Origin: a virus
DNA length: 64,000 nt
IMG/VR virus record: IMGVR_UViG_3300025151_000031
Coordinates: 3,299-67,298 of that record
Reading direction: 5' to 3' (one strand)
This document shows positions 3,001-41,189 of this stretch, in pieces. Made by a program: the position numbers and the translations under genes. Position 1 is the first letter of the stretch, and each line of letters starts with the position of its first letter. The notes below the pieces were generated by a model. It had not been told where the DNA came from. It was given only the letters and a program-made list of their open reading frames with translations, and made no database searches.

Positions 3001-6000
3001 GGTAAATATAAAAGTGAAATATATTCTGCCAAAAAGAAAGGTATTATAGCAAATATTTTTGATCGTTTAAAAAGACTATTAAGAAATCTTTTAGGATTAG
3101 ATAGTAATCTTAGACCTTCAGATGATATGTTAGAAGTAGCTGAATTATTTCAAGGTATAGCTGCAGGTGACTATAGTCGTTTAACTGAAATGGATACTAT
3201 AGCTATTAAAGATGCTGATCAAGATTTAAATGAAGTTAAATTATCATCGAGAGAAATTTTTGATAATGATAAAATAGCTAATATGGCACTACTTCCAGAT
3301 AATAGAAATGGAAGAAAAACTAGCGCAAGGTTTTCTATGGATGTATTAAGTACTCTTACTAGACATTTTGGAGAATCATTATTTGAAAATGAAATACCTT
3401 TAAAAAATATTACTACTAGAGATCTAGATAAATTTACAACTCCTGAGAAAAAAGCAGAATTTAATACTAAAATAGAAAATGCTTATATCGCTGCCATAAG
3501 AAATATGGTAAAAGAGTTAGGAACACTGGGTAAATTAAAAAGAGAAGCATGGATTAAAACAGGAGAAAAGAATACTCAATTAGAAGAAGATTTAAAGCGT
3601 ATTATATATCTTCGTAATTACTTAAAGTCAAACTATAGAAACGTTATAGAAGGTCATAGATCGTATTTAAATACCTTAGGATTAGATATCTCTCAAACTT
3701 ATGATAGTTTGACAGATACTATGGATATTACAGAACTAGATCGTACAAAAGATGTATTTGGAATAATGGAATCTTTTGAGTTTTCTAGTATTGCTACAAC
3801 TCATCCTATGATGAAGTTAATGATCGGTACTCTTCCAGGTTCATTTAATACTACTCAAACAAAAGGAGTAGTAGATTTTAATGAGGCTATGAATTTCTTA
3901 TTTGAAAAGTTACAAGGTACTACAGATCTTAAAAGTCAATTACTTATATTAGAATCTTTAAAAGATACAAAACCTTGGATACAATCTTTATTAAATAGAC
4001 TTAATCCAGATCTTTCTGGAACTTCTAATTTTACTTATAGTGAATTAAAAATACATAACTTATTTAATCAGACATTTTCTAAAACAAAAAATGAGTTTTT
4101 AACTCAGCTTATAGATGAAGACGGTAATATTTATAGTGTAGATGCTAATCAAACAACTGTTGCAAATTTAAAAGGTGGGCAGTGGCTTGCTAATCTTATG
4201 GGGAAATTGAATGAAAAGGGATTAGTGAAATTGGATAAAAAAGGAGAAGTAAAAATTGATTTGACTCATAAAATTAAATTTGAAAGTTTAAATCAAAAAA
4301 TATCTATACTTGATTTTAGATCTAATCCTAAATTAAAAAATTATTTTTCAGGTGCTGCAGGTATAGAGTTTTTACAAGCATTTGGTATAGAGTTTACTAA
4401 TCCTGAAGCTATGCTAGCCTCAACAGAAGAAATAGACGGTAAAGCTATTCCAGATATAATAAATGAAGCAGCTCTATGGATTATTAATCAAATTAGTTTG
4501 GACAGAAATGCTGCAAATATTTATGATCAGAATTCTTTAGATATAAAAACTAGACTAGGTAAATTAATAAAAGCAGAAATGCTTTTTAGTGATGATGTGA
4601 TAGAACACAGACATTTTAATCCTGAAGGAAAACCTATATATGGTATTACTTTAAATACCTATATGAGTAAAATAGCTAATCAAATAACAAATGGTATTTT
4701 ACCTAAACATTTAGATCCTAATTTTAATCCTTATACAACTAACTCTATTGTAGTAAGACAATTACCTAAAGGAGGAATTGTTAAAATGCAAGTTATAGAA
4801 GGTTTAAGAATAAATAAAATGGGTGATCAAGGAACCCTATCTAAAAATTTAACTCCTGCAGATAGAATAGCTTCTAATTTAAATTCTGTATTAAAGAATG
4901 GTGTATTTCCTATACTTAGAACAGGTGATTTAGGGACAGAATTTGGAGTAAAACTTCCATTTAATACATTTAGAAATATTGATAGTGCTAAAAAAGAAAT
5001 ATTAGGTTATATTTTAGATGAAATTTTAGTGTCTCAAAAATTAAATACAGAGGGATTAGGAAGCGATATAAATAAATTTAGAGAGGACGCTAAAGATTTA
5101 AGAGTGTTTAAAGACATTCTTGCTTTATCTGATAATGATCTATTTAAAAATAATTTAAAACGAGTTTTACAAGGAGAACAAGATGTTTCTGAATTTATGA
5201 CTACGCACGGTGATCATATGTTTGAAATGGTTAAATTCTATTTAGAAGATCAAGCATCTGAAACCATAAAAATTTGGACAGAAAATAGAATAGTAGATAG
5301 TATTGATCGTGGTTATTTTGATAATAATGCAATAGATAATTCTATTATTCAAAATATTGTAGGAGATATTAAAAACAAACGTAAGCTTACTGATGCCCAG
5401 TTAATAAAAGTAGCAGAAGCATTTGTTATAAATGATTTTATTGCAAATACAGAACAATTGAAGATATTTTTTGGTGATCCTGCTCATTATAAAGCTTTTT
5501 ATAAAAGAACAAAGGGTGCTGCGGGTACAAAGAAATTTGCTAGATCAGATGTATTTATAGATGAATGGTTAAACAAAGAAGAAAATAAAAGAAGAGACAA
5601 TAAAGTTGCAGACGGAACTGCTGAGGTAGTTGTTATGGAAGATCCAATGTCTGAAAGTGTATGGAGCACTGAATATGAAAGATACTTAGGAGATCCAGGA
5701 AGATTATACAGAACAAATCCTGAAGCAGATGCAAATGCTTGGGCTAATATGCACTTTTATAGAGAACTTATGATTAGAGTTGGTGATTGGACAGATCAAC
5801 AAGAAGATTTATATAAAAAGATGTTTGATCCTAATCAAGAAGACTTAACTATAGAAGAATTAACTGCGTTCCCTCCATTAAAACCACAGTATTTTGGACC
5901 TCAAGTAACAGGAGAGGCATTTAGTCCTATGTATATGATGAAGTTATCTTTAACTCCATTATTTCCACAAATGACTGTTATGAATGGGCAAAGAACGCAA

Positions 6001-9000
6001 TTAGCGGATCTTATGGATGATATGAGTGATAAGCAAATTGATATTGTTTTACATCCATCAGGAGTTAAAGTTGGGCACAAGGTAACAGAAGAAGGTATAA
6101 CCCCTCCTTTTTATAACGAACAAGGAGTTATTAATAAAATAGATCCTGACAGTGCCAGCACAATAGATTTATCTTACTTTGGGGTACAGTTAGATATTTC
6201 TCCAAAACCAAAATCTTTTTCTACTATAGGAACACAAGCACGTACACACATACTTGGTAATTTATATCACAATGGTGTTCCTAAAGATTATCCTGTAAAT
6301 GCAGCTATTAGCTGGGATAATTTAAATGAAATTGAAAAAATAGCTGCAAGTCCTGTTCATGCTAAGGCAGTTAGATATACTCAATTAGTTAATGGATTTT
6401 CAGTCCAAGCCAGACAAAAAGTATTAGATAAATTTAATCTAATACAAGAAAATGGGAAATATAAACTTAAAGATGGAGACATGTCTAAGTTTATAGACTT
6501 TATTCAAGCTGAAATAGCAAAAAGAAAATGGCCTGAAAATATAGCTGAAGGAGTTAATTGGTTATTATCTAGAAATGAGAACGAAAGAGTATTTGATATC
6601 TTAGTTAATAAAGGTATGATTGAAACTCTTTTATTTTCAACCATAGGTAAGTCTGCTATTGCCCAAAAGTTTAAAGGGGATTTAAAAGTTCAAGTATCAT
6701 CTACTGGATTTGAAGTAACAGCAAGGGCTGTTAAACAAAAAGATTTAAAAGGCAACTTTGGACTTGGAACAGGTACTTTAGAGTTTTATCATAAAGAAGA
6801 TACTAATGATCGTAACTCTAAAACTCTTGGAATGGAGGTATATATGCCGCATTATTTTAAAGAGTATTTTGGACAAGACATGGAGATTAGACCTGACGGC
6901 ATTTATAGTGCAGAAGGTGTAAAAGTTGGGGACAATTCTTTACTTGAAATAATAGGATTCCGTATTCCTACTGATGGATTGCATTCAATAGAATTTATAA
7001 AAGTAAAAGGGTTTTTACCAGAAGCTGCTGGACCTATGATTGTAGTCCCTTCTGAAATTACTGTAAAAGCAGGATCTGACTTTGATATTGATAAACTTAC
7101 TTTATATTTCCCATCTTATAAAAGATTATTTGATGGTACAATTGTTAAAAGAAGATATATTGATGGAGACACTAACAATGATGAAGTATTAGAACAACTT
7201 TATAATCAAGTATATGGCCCTACTATTAATTATGCTAAAGAGTTAGATAGAAGCTTAGCAGAAGCAGATAGAAATAAAGAAGGAGATGAGGTATATGACT
7301 CATCTATAGAGGATTTAATGAAGGCTATGTTTGGTGAAGAAGCATTCCAAGATGCTACAGAATATACAGAAGCAGAGTTAGATGTATTATTAAAGCAATT
7401 TAAAGCAAATGAAAACTTAGATCCTAAAACAAGAGAAGATTTTGTTATAGATCAATATAAAAAATTAAAAGACAGATTAAAGTATATTCCATCAGTACAA
7501 GAATATATTAAAGAAAATAAAGGAAAACCAGCAGCAGAATTAAATCATCCAGGAGCTGTCCAAAATGAAATAATGGACATAATGAAAGATGTATTATCTG
7601 ATCCTGATTCGTATGAACAATTATTGCATCCTATTGGAATTAAAAGATTAGGAGATGTAGCTGATGTTGTTAGAGCGGCTACAAATCAACCTATAAGATC
7701 TGAAAAAGATAATTTAGGATACGCAGAACTTATATCTTTTCCTAATAGACATAAAGTAAATACAGAACTTATGGTTGGTAAAAGAGGCTTAGGTATTGCT
7801 GCAGTAAATGCAACACACCAAGTAAAGAGCCAACTAGCTAATTTACATGTTCCACACAATAAAATAATAAACCATTTTGGAAATGAATTTAAAATAGGAT
7901 TACATTTTGAGGGATTTGAGTCTTCTAGTCAAGGTGGAGTAATTGATTTAGGGAGGATATATGATTCACAAGGAGAGAATATTAGCGAGGTTTTATCTGA
8001 ACTTGTAAATGCTTTTGCAGATGTATCAGAAGATCCTATAATATTAGATTTGAACTTAGTACAAGAAACAGCTTCTGCTGCATACTTTTTAATAAGAGCT
8101 GGCGTTCCAGTAGAAACTGTAGTTTTATTTTTAAATCAGCCTATTATAAAAGAATACATTCAAAGAAGAAATATAAATAATAGTAAATTTTTAAATGCAA
8201 GAGGTAAAGATGTACCTGTTCATGATTTAGTAGACTCTTTATTAAATAAATATGAAGCAGAAGGTATAGCTAAATTATCTAAAACTCCTACTATCTTTTC
8301 TCAAGATAGATTACAGTTAATGATGGGAAAAACTTTTGTGGAAATGAAAGCTAGTCAAGAAAATGCACAAGAAAAATATTTAGATGATCAGCTTCAAATT
8401 TTTAATCATTTTAGAATGTATGATGCTATAGGAACTAAGTTAACTCAATTAACTATAGGAACTTCTCATGATACTAAAGCAGCTAAAAATAGAAATCATG
8501 CTAAATTATTATTAGATAGAAGCGATGAAATTATTAGCTCAGAATATTTTGTAAATAGTAAAAAATTATTAGATAATACCCACTTAGGAGAATTCAGAAA
8601 TACAGTGGATACATCAAGCAAAATGTTTAATAATTTCTTTATTAGTGAATTAGCAGGAGTAAGGCATGTAGCACAATTAGATAAAATATTTGAAGTTTTT
8701 TCTGATCCTGAAATTAGATGGGCAGATAATAAACGACTAGCAGCATTAAATGAAGCAGAAAACGACTTTATGGTAGCTGTAATGTCTTATGCATTAAAAT
8801 CTGAAGGTGATGTAAGGTTATATGATAGAATAGAATCTTTATTCCAGGGACCAAATAGCCTTCCTATACAAGTTAAAAAACTTCAACAATTAGGTAAGTA
8901 TCAAGCTAATCCTTTTGTAGCAGGATTATTACCTATTATTGATGAAACTAGAGGGGATTTAAAGAAAACAGATAATATAAAATATTATCATAGAATTTTA

Positions 9001-33781: not shown

Positions 33782-34180
33782 TTATTCTTCCTTTCCAAAC
33801 ATCTTTTTCTCATGTTCATCCATCTCTGGTTCTTGGAAACCTTCTTCATCAATATCATGATCCATTCCCTTAATGTGATCTGCTATAGCAGCATCTTTTG
33901 CAGCTTTCACATTTTTATCCCAATCTTCTAGATATTTTGTATCATCAAAGCCTTTAATCTCATCCCATTTTAATTCTGGAACAATACCAAGCTCTTCTAA
34001 TTTATCTAGACATCTCTCTAATCCATTCTTTAATCTTTTAATTGCATCTCGATCATAATCATTTATAGTAATGCTATGTTTCATTACATCTAATAGATCT
34101 TTTTGTAATCTAGATTCAGAATATTTCTTATTCTCATCTTTCATTATTTGAATTACTGTATTAACTGTGTTTTTACTCAT
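33782..34180 (-). CDS. Hypothetical acidic helical protein
   Basis: 132 aa ORF with TTTAAAACC-ATG start. Confidence 0.7.
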   Translation of the reverse strand: MSKNTVNTVIQIMKDENKKYSESRLQKDLLDVMKHSITINDYDRDAIKRLKNGLERCLDKLEELGIVPELKWDEIKGFDDTKYLEDWDKNVKAAKDAAIADHIKGMDHDIDEEGFQEPEMDEHEKKMFGKEE

Positions 34181-34301
34181 GGTTTTAAATATTAAATTGT
34201 TTTAATTTGTATGTATTTTGCGTTACATACTTACGCTAAGTGTTATATTATACTATTGATTAAATATATGTACAGTACAATATGTGGCAAAATGTATAGT
34301 A

Positions 34302-34722: not shown

Positions 34723-34906
34723 AGTAAAAAGTTTTTTGATTAATTAATTGATACCTCGGGGTACCTTGAATAACAATTATCGGTAGGGGTGATTCTCTAA
34801 ATACCCTCACACGCTCAAAGATTCTCCACAAAAAAAAATTTTTTTCCCCAAAATTTTTTTAACAATTTATTAACATTGTTTTAATATTAATGTAATATTA
34901 GTTTTT

Positions 34907-34998: not shown

Positions 34999-35133
34999 AT
35001 GGCAAAATTAAATTCATTTAAATTTTTAGGAAGTAGCAGTAAAAAAAGACCTGGTATTCACGCCAAGTCCAAAACCTCTAAATTAACATCTTCAAAAAAT
35101 TATTTTAAAAAATATAGAGGCCAAGGCAGATAA
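34999..35133 (+). CDS. 44-aa basic peptide ending KKYRGQGR (not in ORF track)
   Basis: MAKLNSFKFLGSSSKKRPGIHAKSKTSKLTSSKNYFKKYRGQGR; I recall the YRGQG(R/K) C-terminus from small proteins of aquatic phages. Confidence 0.75.
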   Translation: MAKLNSFKFLGSSSKKRPGIHAKSKTSKLTSSKNYFKKYRGQGR

Positions 35134-35148
35134 TTTAAATTATTTTAT

Positions 35149-35156
35149 TATATTTG
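35149..35156 (+). promoter_or_regulatory. Bacteroidota -7 element TATATTTG preceding the ncRNA candidate
   Basis: TAnnTTTG immediately before the GC-richer noncoding block. Confidence 0.65.
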
Positions 35157-35159
35157 CTG

Positions 35160-35375
35160 CGGAGTCTTAGATCACCCCAGAGGGCGAAAGTAGTTATGGG
35201 GTCAGAAGTTGGGTTTACGAACTAATCTAATTAGTCACGGTTGTCCCCAATAACTCCACAAATTGCTTTGATATAAAACTTAGGTGGGAATCATACTATA
35301 GGCTGACAGAAACGTACCCACGAAGGCTAAAAACGGTAAGTAGAAATTCAAAGTTAAACTATTCCACTAGGGGAG
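35160..35375 (+). ncRNA. Unclassified ~215-nt structured ncRNA candidate
   Basis: No tracked ORF; nested helices AGTTATGGGG/CCCCAATAACT, ACTAAT/ATTAGT, CTTTGA/TCAAAG, ACTTA/TAAGT, GTGGG/CCCAC and a possible end-closing TCTTAG/CTAGGG. Confidence 0.6.
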
Positions 35376-35410
35376 AGGTATATCCAAAAATTAAAAAACT
35401 TTATTTTTTA

Positions 35411-35443
35411 TTTGTTTTTATAAAATTTTTTTTTATAAATTTG
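35411..35443 (+). promoter_or_regulatory. Complete Bacteroidota promoter TTTG-N21-TAAATTTG upstream of groES
   Basis: -33 TTTG at 35411-35414 and -7 TAAATTTG at 35436-35443. Confidence 0.75.
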
Positions 35444-35463
35444 TATAAACTAATTTATACATT

Positions 35464-35739
35464 ATGGCAAAGAAAATAAATTTTAAACCTTATGGAGCAT
35501 GGATGTTGCTCCCAAATCCCGCAAAAAGAAAAACAGATTCTGGTATTATTTTAGATGAAAAGACAGCAGGAGCTATAACTACGAACATTTTAGAAGTTTT
35601 AGCTATGGGACCTGATTGTACTTTCTGTAAAATTGGTGATACTGTAATGGTAGATCCCACAATAGAAGCAAGAGTATTACATTTAGATGAGGGAGAATTT
35701 ATACTAGTAGCAGAATATCAGATATTAGGTAAATTTTAA
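35464..35739 (+). CDS. groES: GroES-like co-chaperonin
   Basis: FKPYG..., mobile loop KTDSGIIL, EVLAMGP...KIGDTV, EYQILG. Confidence 0.85.
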   Translation: MAKKINFKPYGAWMLLPNPAKRKTDSGIILDEKTAGAITTNILEVLAMGPDCTFCKIGDTVMVDPTIEARVLHLDEGEFILVAEYQILGKF

Positions 35740-35742
35740 ATT

Positions 35743-35925
35743 ATGGAAGAGTTATATAAAATTTTAGATATGGTTGATTGGAAGCAAGATTTTTTTAGAG
35801 ATATGTATGGAGATAATATATATGGTATTACAAAAGATGGTACTATTGTATACTCTGACAATAAAAAAATATCTGATCGTGTATATTATACATATTTAAC
35901 AAAAGAAGAGCCTGTTAAGGAATGA
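35743..35925 (+). CDS. Hypothetical protein
   Basis: 60 aa, coupled to neighbours. Confidence 0.55.
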   Translation: MEELYKILDMVDWKQDFFRDMYGDNIYGITKDGTIVYSDNKKISDRVYYTYLTKEEPVKE

Positions 35926-39102: not shown

Positions 39103-41042
39103 GACCTGCAGCTTTAAACTATATGAAGCACGGACATTATACGTCTGCTCTTCCTGGTACAAAAGATTACTATGAATACTGGGATGAAGAGAAAAAAAGA
39201 TGTTTGTATGGATTTAGTACAGGAGACATTGAAATTACAGGTAATCACTATTTTTATTTAAACTATTGTCCCATTGACAGATCTGTTGATGAGGAACTTC
39301 CAGATGGTACAATTATAGCTAGACGTGAAAGAACATTTCCAGCATTTTATGACGGAGATCATAAATATTTTACAGCAGTAGATACAGCCAGAAGAACAGA
39401 TAAACATTTAGTAGTATTAAAAGCAAGACGTAAGGGATATTCTTATAAAGCTGCTGCTATGCTTGCACGTAATTATTTTTTAATTCGTAATAGTAAGAAT
39501 TTTGTATTTGCTGGACAAAAAGAATATTTAATTGGGGATGGTCTTCTATCTAAAGCTTGGGAAATACTTTCTTTTGTAGATGATAATACGGCTTGGACTC
39601 AACCGCGGTTAAGAGATAGAGAGATGATTAAAATGTCTGGATACAAGAAAAATGTTAATGGAGCAGATGTAGAATTAGGAATGAAATCTCAAATAATGGG
39701 AGTATCATTGAAAGATGCCCCAGATAAAGTAAGGGGTAAAGCTGGGGAGTTAATATTTTTTGAGGAAGCGGGTGCTTTTCCAGGATTATTAAAAGCTTGG
39801 GAGGTAACAATGCCTGTGATGCGTCAAGGTGCTAAAACTCTTGGAACCATGGTTGCATTTGGTACAGGTGGTACAGAAGGAGCAGATTTTGAAGGTATGG
39901 AAGAGTTATTTTACAATCCAGATTCTTATGATTGTTTAGCATTTGAAAATGAATGGGATGAAGGTGGTAGAGGAACTTATTGTGGATATTTTGTACCTAT
40001 CCAAGAAAACTTAGAAGGGTTTATAGATGATGATGGTAATTCAGACAGAGAAAAAGCTATCGAATTTGAAGAAGATAATAGAAATAAAAAGAAAGGGACA
40101 AATGATCCAAAAGCTTATGATCAATATATAGCAGAACATCCAAAAAATCCTAGAGAAGCAACCTTACAAGTATCATCTAATTTATTTGATATAGCATCTT
40201 TACAAGAACAATATAATAATGTTAGGGTAAATAAATTACAAGCTATAGGTACAAATGGAAAATTATATTATGATCATACTGGTAAAATACAATTTAAAGT
40301 AGATGGGGATTTAAAACCTATATCTAGATTTCCACATAGAAAAGAAGATAATTTACAAGGGGCTATTGTTATATATGAATCTCCATATAAAACGCAAGAA
40401 CAACAAGTACCTATGAATATGTATTTAGTTTGTCATGACCCCTATGCACAATCTCAATCTGCAGATTCTTCATCTTTAGGATCAGCATATGTTATAAAAA
40501 GAGTTAATAATATATCTCAACCAGATGATTTAATAGTTGCAAGTTATGTAGCACGTCCTCATTCTCAAGATGAATTTAATAAAAATCTTTTTATGTTAGC
40601 AGATTATTATAATGCTAAAATAGGATTTGAGAATGATCGAGGAGAAGTAATTGCGTATGCGAGAAGGCATAGAAAATTACATAGATTACAGGAAGAATTT
40701 GAAATGTTAGATAAAAAAGATCTTAGATCTAGAACAGTTAAGCGTCAATATGGTATGCATATGACAGAACAAAGAAAAAGACAGGGGGAAATATATATAC
40801 GAGATTGGTTAAATACTGTAAGATCTACAGATGAAAATGGAAACAAGTTATTAAACATGCATAAAATATATGACTTGGGATTATTACAAGAATTAATTAA
40901 ATTTAATCATGATGGTAACTTTGACCGTGTAATGGCATTAATGGTTGGTATGTATCATACTAGAGAAATGTATAATGCTGAAGTTAAAGAAACATTAAGT
41001 GATAGAGCTGCAGACAAATGGTTTGCAGATAATTATGGATAG
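39078..41042 (+). CDS. terL: Terminase large subunit
   Basis: Walker A LKARRKGYS, Walker B IFFEEAG, FGTGG, nuclease HDPY and GNFDRVMA. Confidence 0.95.
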   Translation: MFRDTNRLRPAALNYMKHGHYTSALPGTKDYYEYWDEEKKRCLYGFSTGDIEITGNHYFYLNYCPIDRSVDEELPDGTIIARRERTFPAFYDGDHKYFTAVDTARRTDKHLVVLKARRKGYSYKAAAMLARNYFLIRNSKNFVFAGQKEYLIGDGLLSKAWEILSFVDDNTAWTQPRLRDREMIKMSGYKKNVNGADVELGMKSQIMGVSLKDAPDKVRGKAGELIFFEEAGAFPGLLKAWEVTMPVMRQGAKTLGTMVAFGTGGTEGADFEGMEELFYNPDSYDCLAFENEWDEGGRGTYCGYFVPIQENLEGFIDDDGNSDREKAIEFEEDNRNKKKGTNDPKAYDQYIAEHPKNPREATLQVSSNLFDIASLQEQYNNVRVNKLQAIGTNGKLYYDHTGKIQFKVDGDLKPISRFPHRKEDNLQGAIVIYESPYKTQEQQVPMNMYLVCHDPYAQSQSADSSSLGSAYVIKRVNNISQPDDLIVASYVARPHSQDEFNKNLFMLADYYNAKIGFENDRGEVIAYARRHRKLHRLQEEFEMLDKKDLRSRTVKRQYGMHMTEQRKRQGEIYIRDWLNTVRSTDENGNKLLNMHKIYDLGLLQELIKFNHDGNFDRVMALMVGMYHTREMYNAEVKETLSDRAADKWFADNYG

Positions 41043-41115
41043 GGGGTGACAGGTTTGCCACTTGCTAGGTGATGTACCCAGCTTTGGAACGTGAGTTCGA
41101 GTCTCACCACCTCCA
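41042..41115 (+). ncRNA. tmRNA-TLD-like / D-armless tRNA-like RNA with G3:U70 alanine identity
   Basis: Acceptor GGGGGTG/CACCTCC with G3:U70 and A73; T-arm GTGAG-TTCGAGT-CTCAC; no D-stem; only 42 nt between the acceptor 5' strand and the T-arm. Confidence 0.75.
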
Positions 41116-41116
41116 C

Positions 41117-41189
41117 AAGTGTTATATAAATAATATAACAGATAAAATTTAAAAATAAACTTTAATTTATAAAAATAATCTTATTTTTG
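41117..41189 (+). promoter_or_regulatory. Portal promoter: AAGTGTTATATA motif plus -7 element TATTTTTG
   Basis: Motif at 41117-41128 and TAnnTTTG at 41182-41189; same geometry at 44757/44822. Confidence 0.6.

Follow-up and report, generated by a model that had tools for sequence, protein, structure and literature searches.

A gene for a conserved structured RNA lies directly upstream of the GroES-like gene in a 64,000-nucleotide (nt) stretch of viral DNA, positions 3,299 to 67,298 of the IMG/VR record IMGVR_UViG_3300025151_000031 (hereafter the window), and almost certainly represents an RNA family that is absent from Rfam. The RNA is assigned to the noncoding block between a 44-amino-acid (aa) open reading frame (ORF, 34999-35133) and the GroES-like ORF (35464-35739). 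It has homologues in at least 130 viral and metagenome contigs, and their comparison defines two multi-helix domains that were put together in part differently in an earlier reading of the window made from its letters (the sequence-only reading). We favour an independently transcribed, stable RNA that would act in trans, a view we hold with evenly balanced confidence.

The block spans 35134-35463, is overlapped by no ORF of 30 aa or more on either strand, and has stops throughout all six frames. Its G+C content is 0.37-0.46 over 35150-35400 compared with 0.14-0.29 in both flanks, so the G+C-richer noncoding block described by the sequence-only reading is real. Twelve IMG/VR loci were reached via the GroES-like protein. 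Six carry a noncoding block with 87-92% nucleotide identity to that of the window, although the GroES-like protein is only 76-95% identical in aa, and in five others, with a GroES-like protein 57-61% identical, a longer, diverged version of the RNA is found farther upstream. The twelfth locus is too short, and the element is present on the same contig (L051). A two-block sequence pattern retrieved 73 IMG/VR stretches, made up of 59 unique full-length copies besides that of the window, 10 duplicates and four truncated copies, and a looser pattern combined with a profile filter brought up 114 metagenome loci, of which 52 were true matches, and 70 genome loci, of which 4 were. Of the resulting 60 copies, 16 are short forms of ~215-230 nt like that of the window, 42 are long forms of ~275-290 nt, and the remainder are outliers.

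A covariance model (R1) was built from 37 long-form relatives (alignment A2), using a 66-pair structure written from RNAalifold plus inspection. R1 defines the family by a junction of three helices (P1/P2/P3) with a conserved P2 loop and a UCAGAMG joiner, and by a second domain with an AGGGG...UAUAUCC tail. In the window it has a single match (35151-35388, 68.2 bits, E 7e-20, model positions 1-277) in which all named helices pair, and it recovered 76 of the 76 non-training loci given to it (71 distinct sequences). Covariation among homologues, on which the proposal of a structured RNA depends, is evident in three alignments. The training alignment A2 has 92.5% of its cells paired, against 35-45% with slid partners, and compensatory changes in 23 of 66 pairs (203 cells, compared with 74 +/- 8 after shuffling; 0/500 shuffles reached this). 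The 17 short, window-type forms were aligned by MAFFT alone (A4) and their helices mapped by coordinate; 99.7% of cells in the 47 pairs are paired, with eight pairs (29 cells) compensatory (0/500 shuffles). Among the 71 distinct non-training sequences (A5), 92.2% of cells are paired and 49 of 66 pairs are compensatory (614 cells versus 194 +/- 15 shuffled, 0/500), in an alignment that was fitted to R1 and hence leans towards the model. The distant short-type copies L176, L274/L153 and L194 have wholly different yet complementary sequences at P1 and at the three main helices of domain 2. G-U pairs are frequent and conserved, one P3 pair being G-U in 37/37 sequences of A2, which identifies the + strand as the functional one. 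GNRA-capped helices and many invariant unpaired bases are further features of the alignments.

The features of the window copy are collected in Table 1. In P1, 13 of the 17 short forms have A-U at 35164/35254 and the other 4 have G-C, and all six model P1 pairs are compensatory in A5. The P2 pair 35178/35198 is C-G in three short forms and U-A in 14, and in A5 it is U-A in 40, C-G in 28 and A-U in three sequences; the internal loop of P2 (AGAGG / AGUUAU) is conserved, its tip (35184-35191) is capped by GAAA, and a conserved joiner follows. The apical part of P3 varies in length and sequence, with compensatory changes in 4/8 inner or apical pairs in A4 and in 6/6 apical model pairs in A5. The sequence-only reading had correctly placed this apical hairpin (35221-35235) and the three main helices of domain 2, which are upheld by covariation and by the distant homologues. 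Its outer domain-1 helix (35192-35201/35245-35255) and its pairing of the two ends (35165-70/35367-72) are not supported: both show 0 compensatory changes, and one pair is unpaired in 14/17 short forms in the former and in 12/17 in the latter. Covariation supports P1, P2 and P3 in their place.

In domain 2, the pair 35266/35353 of the outer helix is C-G in 14/17 and U-A in 3/17 short forms, and it is at this same place that L176, L274 and L194 carry their own complementary sequences. The next helix inwards is paired in 100% of cells in short forms and 7/7 of its model pairs are compensatory in A5. In the innermost of the three, 35286/35319 is G-C in 11/17 and A-U in 6/17; its inner 3 base pairs are invariant, and are neither supported nor refuted by covariation. 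The AGGGG...UAUAUCC tail is kept in phage and host-genome copies alike. Residues 35379-84 of the tail may pair with GAUAUA at 35270-75, which would form a pseudoknot relative to the outer helix. Model helix 7, the long-form equivalent of the tail, has 0 compensatory pairs in A2 and 8/8 in the model-fitted A5, and no partner beyond the AGGGG hairpin was found by eye for the variable 4-5 nt that precede UAUAUCC.

Table 1. Features of the RNA locus in the window (positions are those of the window)
Feature	Position	Strand	Evidence
-7 box TATATTTG, Bacteroidota type TAnnTTTG	35149..35156	+	fixed place in homologues
RNA core (short form of the family), two domains	35161..35386	+	R1 match, no ORF overlap
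Domain 1, closed by P1 (35161-35165 / 35253-35257)	35161..35257	+	covariation
P2 (35172-73/35205-06, 35174-78/35198-202)	35172..35206	+	covariation
P3 (35208-13/35246-51; inner 35218-19/35238-39; apical hairpin 35221-26/35230-35)	35208..35251	+	covariation
Domain 2, outer helix (35266-71/35348-53), encloses conserved UAUAAA and two helices	35266..35353	+	covariation, distant homologues
Domain 2, helix 35278-82/35337-41 (model helix 8 of long forms)	35278..35341	+	covariation
Domain 2, helix 35284-88/35317-21 with inner 3 base pairs 35294-96/35314-16	35284..35321	+	covariation for outer part
3' tail: small hairpin around invariant AGGGG (35369-73), then UAUAUCC (35379-85)	35364..35385	+	conservation
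Weak A/U-only hairpin (35392-98/35404-10), then U-rich run	35392..35419	+	read from sequence
-7 box TAAATTTG, separate promoter of the GroES-like gene (35464-35739)	35436..35443	+	sequence, conserved spacing

The RNA is preceded by a -7 box (TATATTTG) that ends 4 nt upstream of P1 and conforms to TAnnTTTG, which we take to be the Bacteroidota consensus. Among the 60 copies the motif is exact at this fixed place in 38, has one mismatch in 18 and is missing from four, compared with a frequency of 4.3% in random 53-nt windows; the box noted by the sequence-only reading is therefore present at its place in 56 of 60 copies when one-mismatch variants are included. Presumably transcription starts a few bases past such a box, and given the 4-nt distance to P1 the 5' end would fall at P1, probably at ~35160-35162. 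The second promoter that the sequence-only reading assigned to groES is also there (TAAATTTG). Its -7 box lies 47-50 nt past the RNA tail in 36 of 59 copies, followed by an ATG at ~75-83 nt, and in many relatives a small hairpin of changing sequence occurs between the RNA and this box. In the window the A/U hairpin and U run of Table 1 may be the terminator of the RNA, and they overlap the upstream part of the next promoter. Counted from P1, the RNA would be ~225 nt long with UAUAUCC as its 3' end, or ~260 nt long with the A/U hairpin as its end. Matches to sigma-70-type promoters were set aside as not relevant to a Bacteroidota host. The earlier description of a structured noncoding RNA of no recognised class with its own host-type promoter has thus gained covariation, a negative Rfam result and a conserved box; its transcription is something we infer.

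Rfam 15 (4227 families) gave no match at gathering scores anywhere in the window. The same search of 12 long-form loci returned nothing but one unrelated tRNA, and the host-genome copies matched nothing, with tRNAs found elsewhere only. In E-value mode (up to 10) there were only chance-level matches (E 0.26-5.8), on the opposite strand or off the element, and ARAGORN called no tRNA or tmRNA gene in the window. The sequence-only reading, too, had not recognised it as a tRNA, RNase P RNA, riboswitch or small ribozyme. The Rfam model of phi29-type packaging RNA (pRNA) and the known riboswitch models do not match the element. A small hairpin and U-rich run, which may or may not be the expression platform of a riboswitch or attenuator, comes after many copies; the next gene has its own promoter. 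Group I intron models were unmatched at E up to 10, and the element lies between a promoter and an AT-rich spacer that holds the next promoter, without exons. By eye, some sequences show a possible group I feature, in which the joiner after P2 is complementary to bases following GAUAUAG, but it is not conserved and the idea was rejected. The long irregular hairpin with a large central bubble that marks 6S-type RNA does not fit the two multi-helix junction domains seen in the covariation, and the Rfam 6S models were unmatched. No account of this RNA was found in the literature on noncoding or structured RNAs of crAss-like phages and Crassvirales. As neither a sequence-and-structure search nor the literature offers a family for it, the RNA is filed as a new class.

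The RNA has the same place in all phage loci, at the head of a module that runs rightward through the GroES-like gene, small ORFs, TerL (phrog_6681, E 8e-137), portal and major head protein. The ORF at 35464-35739 has a GroES match in PHROGs (phrog_3188, E 2.6e-9) and matches Cpn10 at E 0.0024, under the Pfam cut-off. ORFs of the GroES-like cluster lie on the strand of the RNA in 129 of 129 cases (110 loci), and leftward genes start on its other side. The window phage is by sequence a member of the Crassvirales, and its TerL is 41% identical to that of gut Suoliviridae and 34% to that of Flavobacterium phage FpV4.

Our searches for the RNA outside the pattern-selected loci covered GenBank phages and 151 genomes of one bacterial family, and as far as searched the RNA appears to be confined to marine Crassvirales and Flavobacteriia-type genomes. 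Three queries, namely the 861-bp region, the window RNA and a long form, had no real match in INPHARED by blastn, the sole hit being 26 nt in an Arthrobacter phage (E 0.7), dismissed as chance. R1 found 0 candidates in the crAss-like genome cr115_1 and in FpV4, and its best score in phage phi14:2 is 8-9 bits; all three have a similar module without the RNA.

Starting from the pattern matches, R1 found six places in four Flavobacteriia-type genomes. One of these (G004) is a 64-kb crAss-like contig binned as a bacterium. In the family of G001, which is labelled a Polaribacter metagenome-assembled genome, 2 of 151 genomes match, G001 itself included, with 12 candidates scored per genome. The host copies (L278 in G001, L279, L280, L281 in G140, L282 in G002, and L283; two genomes have two copies each) are located in small regions that have a tyrosine integrase (PF00589, E 1.6e-11 and 2e-7; a third region has an Arm-DNA-binding fragment). 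Also found there are a tRNA gene, a small gene resembling HTH_17 (E 8e-5, under the Pfam cut-off) and a ParB_N/methylase fusion; the N-terminus of one island ORF is presumably HsdM-like. The island copies are full two-domain RNAs with the phage-type tail, with a stem and U run between the RNA and the next ORF. In L280 and L281 that ORF is a small one, and an HTH_17-like gene comes after it. No island protein has a relative in the phage loci, and no recognisable head or packaging protein was found among those scanned. The next gene is co-oriented in 5/6 host places, and one island copy faces a convergent gene, for which the RNA can be no leader. These integrase regions may be satellites or defence islands.

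In the favoured reading, host RNA polymerase would start at the phage's own Bacteroidota-type promoter so that the 5' end is the first base pair of P1. The transcript would fold into the P1/P2/P3 junction and the second multi-helix domain, with both ends tucked into helices, and would end at the small hairpin ahead of the separate promoter of the GroES-like gene. The RNA would then act in trans on a binding partner supplied by the host cell and not by the phage, at or before the switch to virion assembly. Action in trans is favoured because the promoter is placed so that both RNA ends would be base-paired, because the next gene has its own promoter while the downstream neighbours vary, and because the island copies have terminator-like stems and share no protein with the phages. 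The presence of the same RNA in Flavobacteriia integrase islands that have no protein in common with the phages points to a host-side partner, and its fixed place heading the GroES-like/TerL/portal/capsid module suggests action at or before the assembly switch.

Several observations weigh against this reading. The folding energy of the window sequence does not beat that of shuffles, as a structured RNA might have been expected to do (+ strand z = +1.58, with 192/200 shuffles folding as well; - strand z = 0.06). TAnnTTTG is common in the AT-rich window and not enriched (122 matches versus 103 +/- 10), 18 of the 56 conserved -7 boxes are mismatched, and four copies have no box. Given the unremarkable fold energy and the lack of motif enrichment, the case rests on comparison of homologues and not on the window alone. 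A terminator scan demanding three G-C pairs came up empty on the + strand past the RNA, and without a G+C-rich terminator read-through into the GroES-like gene is likely. Among the 23 sequencing runs listed for the stretch, matched as contigs at 85% likeness, the DNA runs X1, X10 and X11 cover the element; the one RNA run (X20) is represented by a single contig, 35542-35810, within and just past the GroES-like gene, and since contigs are all there is, the missing RNA cover says nothing on transcription. Throughout the phage loci, as in most host places, the next gene has the orientation of the RNA, which fits a leader too. In three close relatives (L208, L215 and L189) an ORF of 44-60 aa lies inside the P3 apical loop, so that at least there the transcript would also be an mRNA.

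The main rival holds that the RNA heads the morphogenesis operon as a cis-acting leader. Transcripts begun at the 35149 promoter would run into the GroES-like and later genes, the RNA would control elongation or termination as a riboswitch-like attenuator that senses a ligand or protein, or as a polymerase-modifying antitermination RNA like HK022 put, and the islands would have borrowed the leader for genes of their own. We regard this as possible, though clearly less probable than a trans-acting RNA. As with the put and lambda nut leaders, a promoter immediately precedes the RNA, and a long, co-oriented operon begins with it. No strong terminator follows; the co-orientation extends over the 129 ORFs of the 110 phage loci and 5/6 host places, and in two islands the RNA precedes a small ORF and an HTH_17-like gene. 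The small hairpin and U-rich run could be an expression platform, and ORFs are tolerated inside the P3 loop. Unlike put and nut, the window RNA is much larger and has two multi-helix domains, and the gene that follows has a separate, complete promoter at constant distance (in 36/59 copies), which a leader would not need. Furthermore, the downstream neighbour varies between the GroES-like gene, a membrane-protein ORF and an inserted ORF, one host copy is followed by a convergent gene, and island copies are followed by a stem and U run and at least 100 nt before the next ORF. An alternative pairing of the 3' strand of the RNA with the downstream hairpin was not found, although no systematic search was made.

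Three further explanations are less likely than either a trans-acting RNA or a leader. A packaging or assembly RNA, acting in trans as part of the DNA-packaging motor or procapsid, is suggested by the position ahead of TerL, portal and major head protein and by a compact fold with variable peripheral hairpins, and island copies could let a satellite use the motor of its helper. As an analogy, phi29 pRNA is likewise a compact phage-encoded RNA within the range of 120-260 nt, made from its own promoter in a genome that also has packaging genes. There is no sequence or structure match to it, however, and neither pRNA nor any other Rfam family matched; the window phage belongs to the Crassvirales; the islands scanned have no recognisable head or packaging protein and share none with the phages; and cr115_1, FpV4 and phi14:2 have a related TerL but lack the RNA, so the motor needs no such RNA in general. 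Covarying intermolecular loop-loop complementarity, through which pRNA forms a ring on the portal, was not seen in the alignments, which were inspected for it by eye only. We consider this explanation very improbable. Marginally less credible still is descent from, or kinship with, a mobile ribozyme (a degenerate group I-like intron, for instance, or some other self-processing element) that has been retained for self-cleavage or mobility and not for regulation. The RNA shares with group I introns GNRA-capped helices and a tolerance of ORFs in a peripheral loop, and has many invariant unpaired bases; in the relative L194 its 3' part is overlapped by an ORF of the DUF559 nuclease family (E 9e-14), and the RNA is found in mobile islands, sometimes with two copies per genome. 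Yet no Rfam intron or ribozyme model matched even at E up to 10, no gene is interrupted, the flanks are promoter and AT-rich spacer, and the syntenic place is fixed in all phage loci, unlike that of a mobile insertion. Least probable of all is a folded single-stranded DNA signal for priming or origin function. The point where leftward and rightward genes diverge and the cumulative GC skew minimum near 34100-34200 are indeed ~450-1000 bp away from the element, and a conserved noncoding block with A/T tracts is found just upstream; against this, the conserved and frequent G-U pairs would be G-T pairs, weak in DNA, a correctly oriented promoter is conserved, and the island copies are in bacterial chromosomes at no phage origin.

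Precedents exist for noncoding RNAs of this kind. According to a preprint (bioRxiv 10.1101/2020.03.07.982082), two intergenic regions of the cultured crAss-like phage phi14:2 give abundant RNAs of undetermined function, expressed above most genes. They resemble the window RNA as noncoding RNAs from a crAss-like phage with a marine host of Flavobacterium class, and differ in showing no homology to it (the R1 score given above) and in lying in another part of the genome (g004-g006). The reported region corresponds to ~1.7 kb without a current coding sequence between g004 and g006 (L287, 2904-4602), where R1 finds nothing. The phi14:2 RNAs are, to judge from these comparisons, a precedent and not relatives. 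The window RNA also recalls the GOLLD, ROOL and raiA-type motifs, with their complex covarying folds, many invariant unpaired bases and occurrence in phages or mobile regions, often near tRNA genes. It differs from them in having no Rfam 15 match, in the smaller size of its family (215-300 nt) and in being found, as far as searched, in marine Crassvirales and Flavobacteriia-type genomes only.

Coding sequences within or beside the RNA copies take several forms. The P3-loop ORFs (L208:2942-3076; L215:256-438 on the - strand; L189, where the ORF is cut) are Cys- and Asp-rich, have the RNA halves intact on both sides and match no Pfam family; a CDGSH-like Cys motif may be present in these or in the 44-aa ORF upstream of the RNA. 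In L194 the DUF559 ORF (7066-7425, - strand), of the Vsr-like nuclease family, starts in domain 2 and spans the tail-like stretch, and the P3 loop of that copy is occupied by a further, 73-aa ORF. In L004 (2390-2930, on the contig of L033), and also in L051, an insertion of ~540 bp separates the RNA from the GroES-like promoter, and an ORF begins 11 nt past the RNA tail.

The 44-aa ORF immediately upstream of the RNA promoter (34999-35133, + strand) is lysine/arginine-rich and matches no Pfam or PHROG family. It belongs to a conserved family of 39-50-aa proteins (117 clusters at E <= 0.01), none of them named and the majority from marine metagenomes. The ORF is absent from long-form loci, where a Cys-rich ORF or a divergent intergenic region precedes the RNA. 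A second conserved noncoding block (~34750-34870) is also G+C-richer, ends in CGCTCAAAGATT..CCAC and is followed by alternating A and T tracts. It sits where leftward and rightward genes diverge, near the cumulative GC skew minimum, has relatives at L008:150-230 and L011:2230-2320, and could be an origin or a divergent control region. The equivalent place in FpV4 (L286:1-480) has repeated motifs and similar A/T tracts. In contigs of the marine DNA runs X10 and X11, 34891 is joined to 35460 via 40 unrelated letters; this junction may come from a relative in which the 44-aa ORF, RNA and spacer have been replaced, or may be an artefact, considering the 85% likeness and the AT-rich flanks. Between TerL and portal, 77 nt (41042-41118, + strand) align to both ends of the Rfam tmRNA model, giving a tRNA-like domain (TLD) only, with no mRNA-like part. 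This element scores 35.4 bits (E 5e-13 for a 221-nt stretch), under the gathering score of 47, and was not called by ARAGORN. Among the loci gathered it occurs in one other only (L050, 95% identical), and most loci do not reach that far. The sequence-only reading had put the RNA forward as a possible partner of this element, or else as a packaging RNA or a protein sponge.

The Crassvirales are among the most abundant phages, and the timing of their late expression and assembly is poorly understood. Marine members are found here to share a widespread RNA family whose structure is well supported, which always heads the morphogenesis module behind its own host-type promoter, and which also has copies in mobile islands of the host class. 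Its new and complex fold recommends it for structural work whatever it does, and the covariance model and helix coordinates provide a testable object for phage-host RNA biology in marine Bacteroidota. On a bolder view, which we think rather unlikely, the RNA is a token shared by marine crAss-like phages and Flavobacteriia integrase islands: a complex-fold, possibly catalytic or self-assembling RNA that would act on a host machine (RNA polymerase or ribosome), and through which the islands, as satellites or defence elements, would sense, hijack or decoy phage development. The link between phages and islands in itself raises the possibility of RNA-based satellite or defence interplay.

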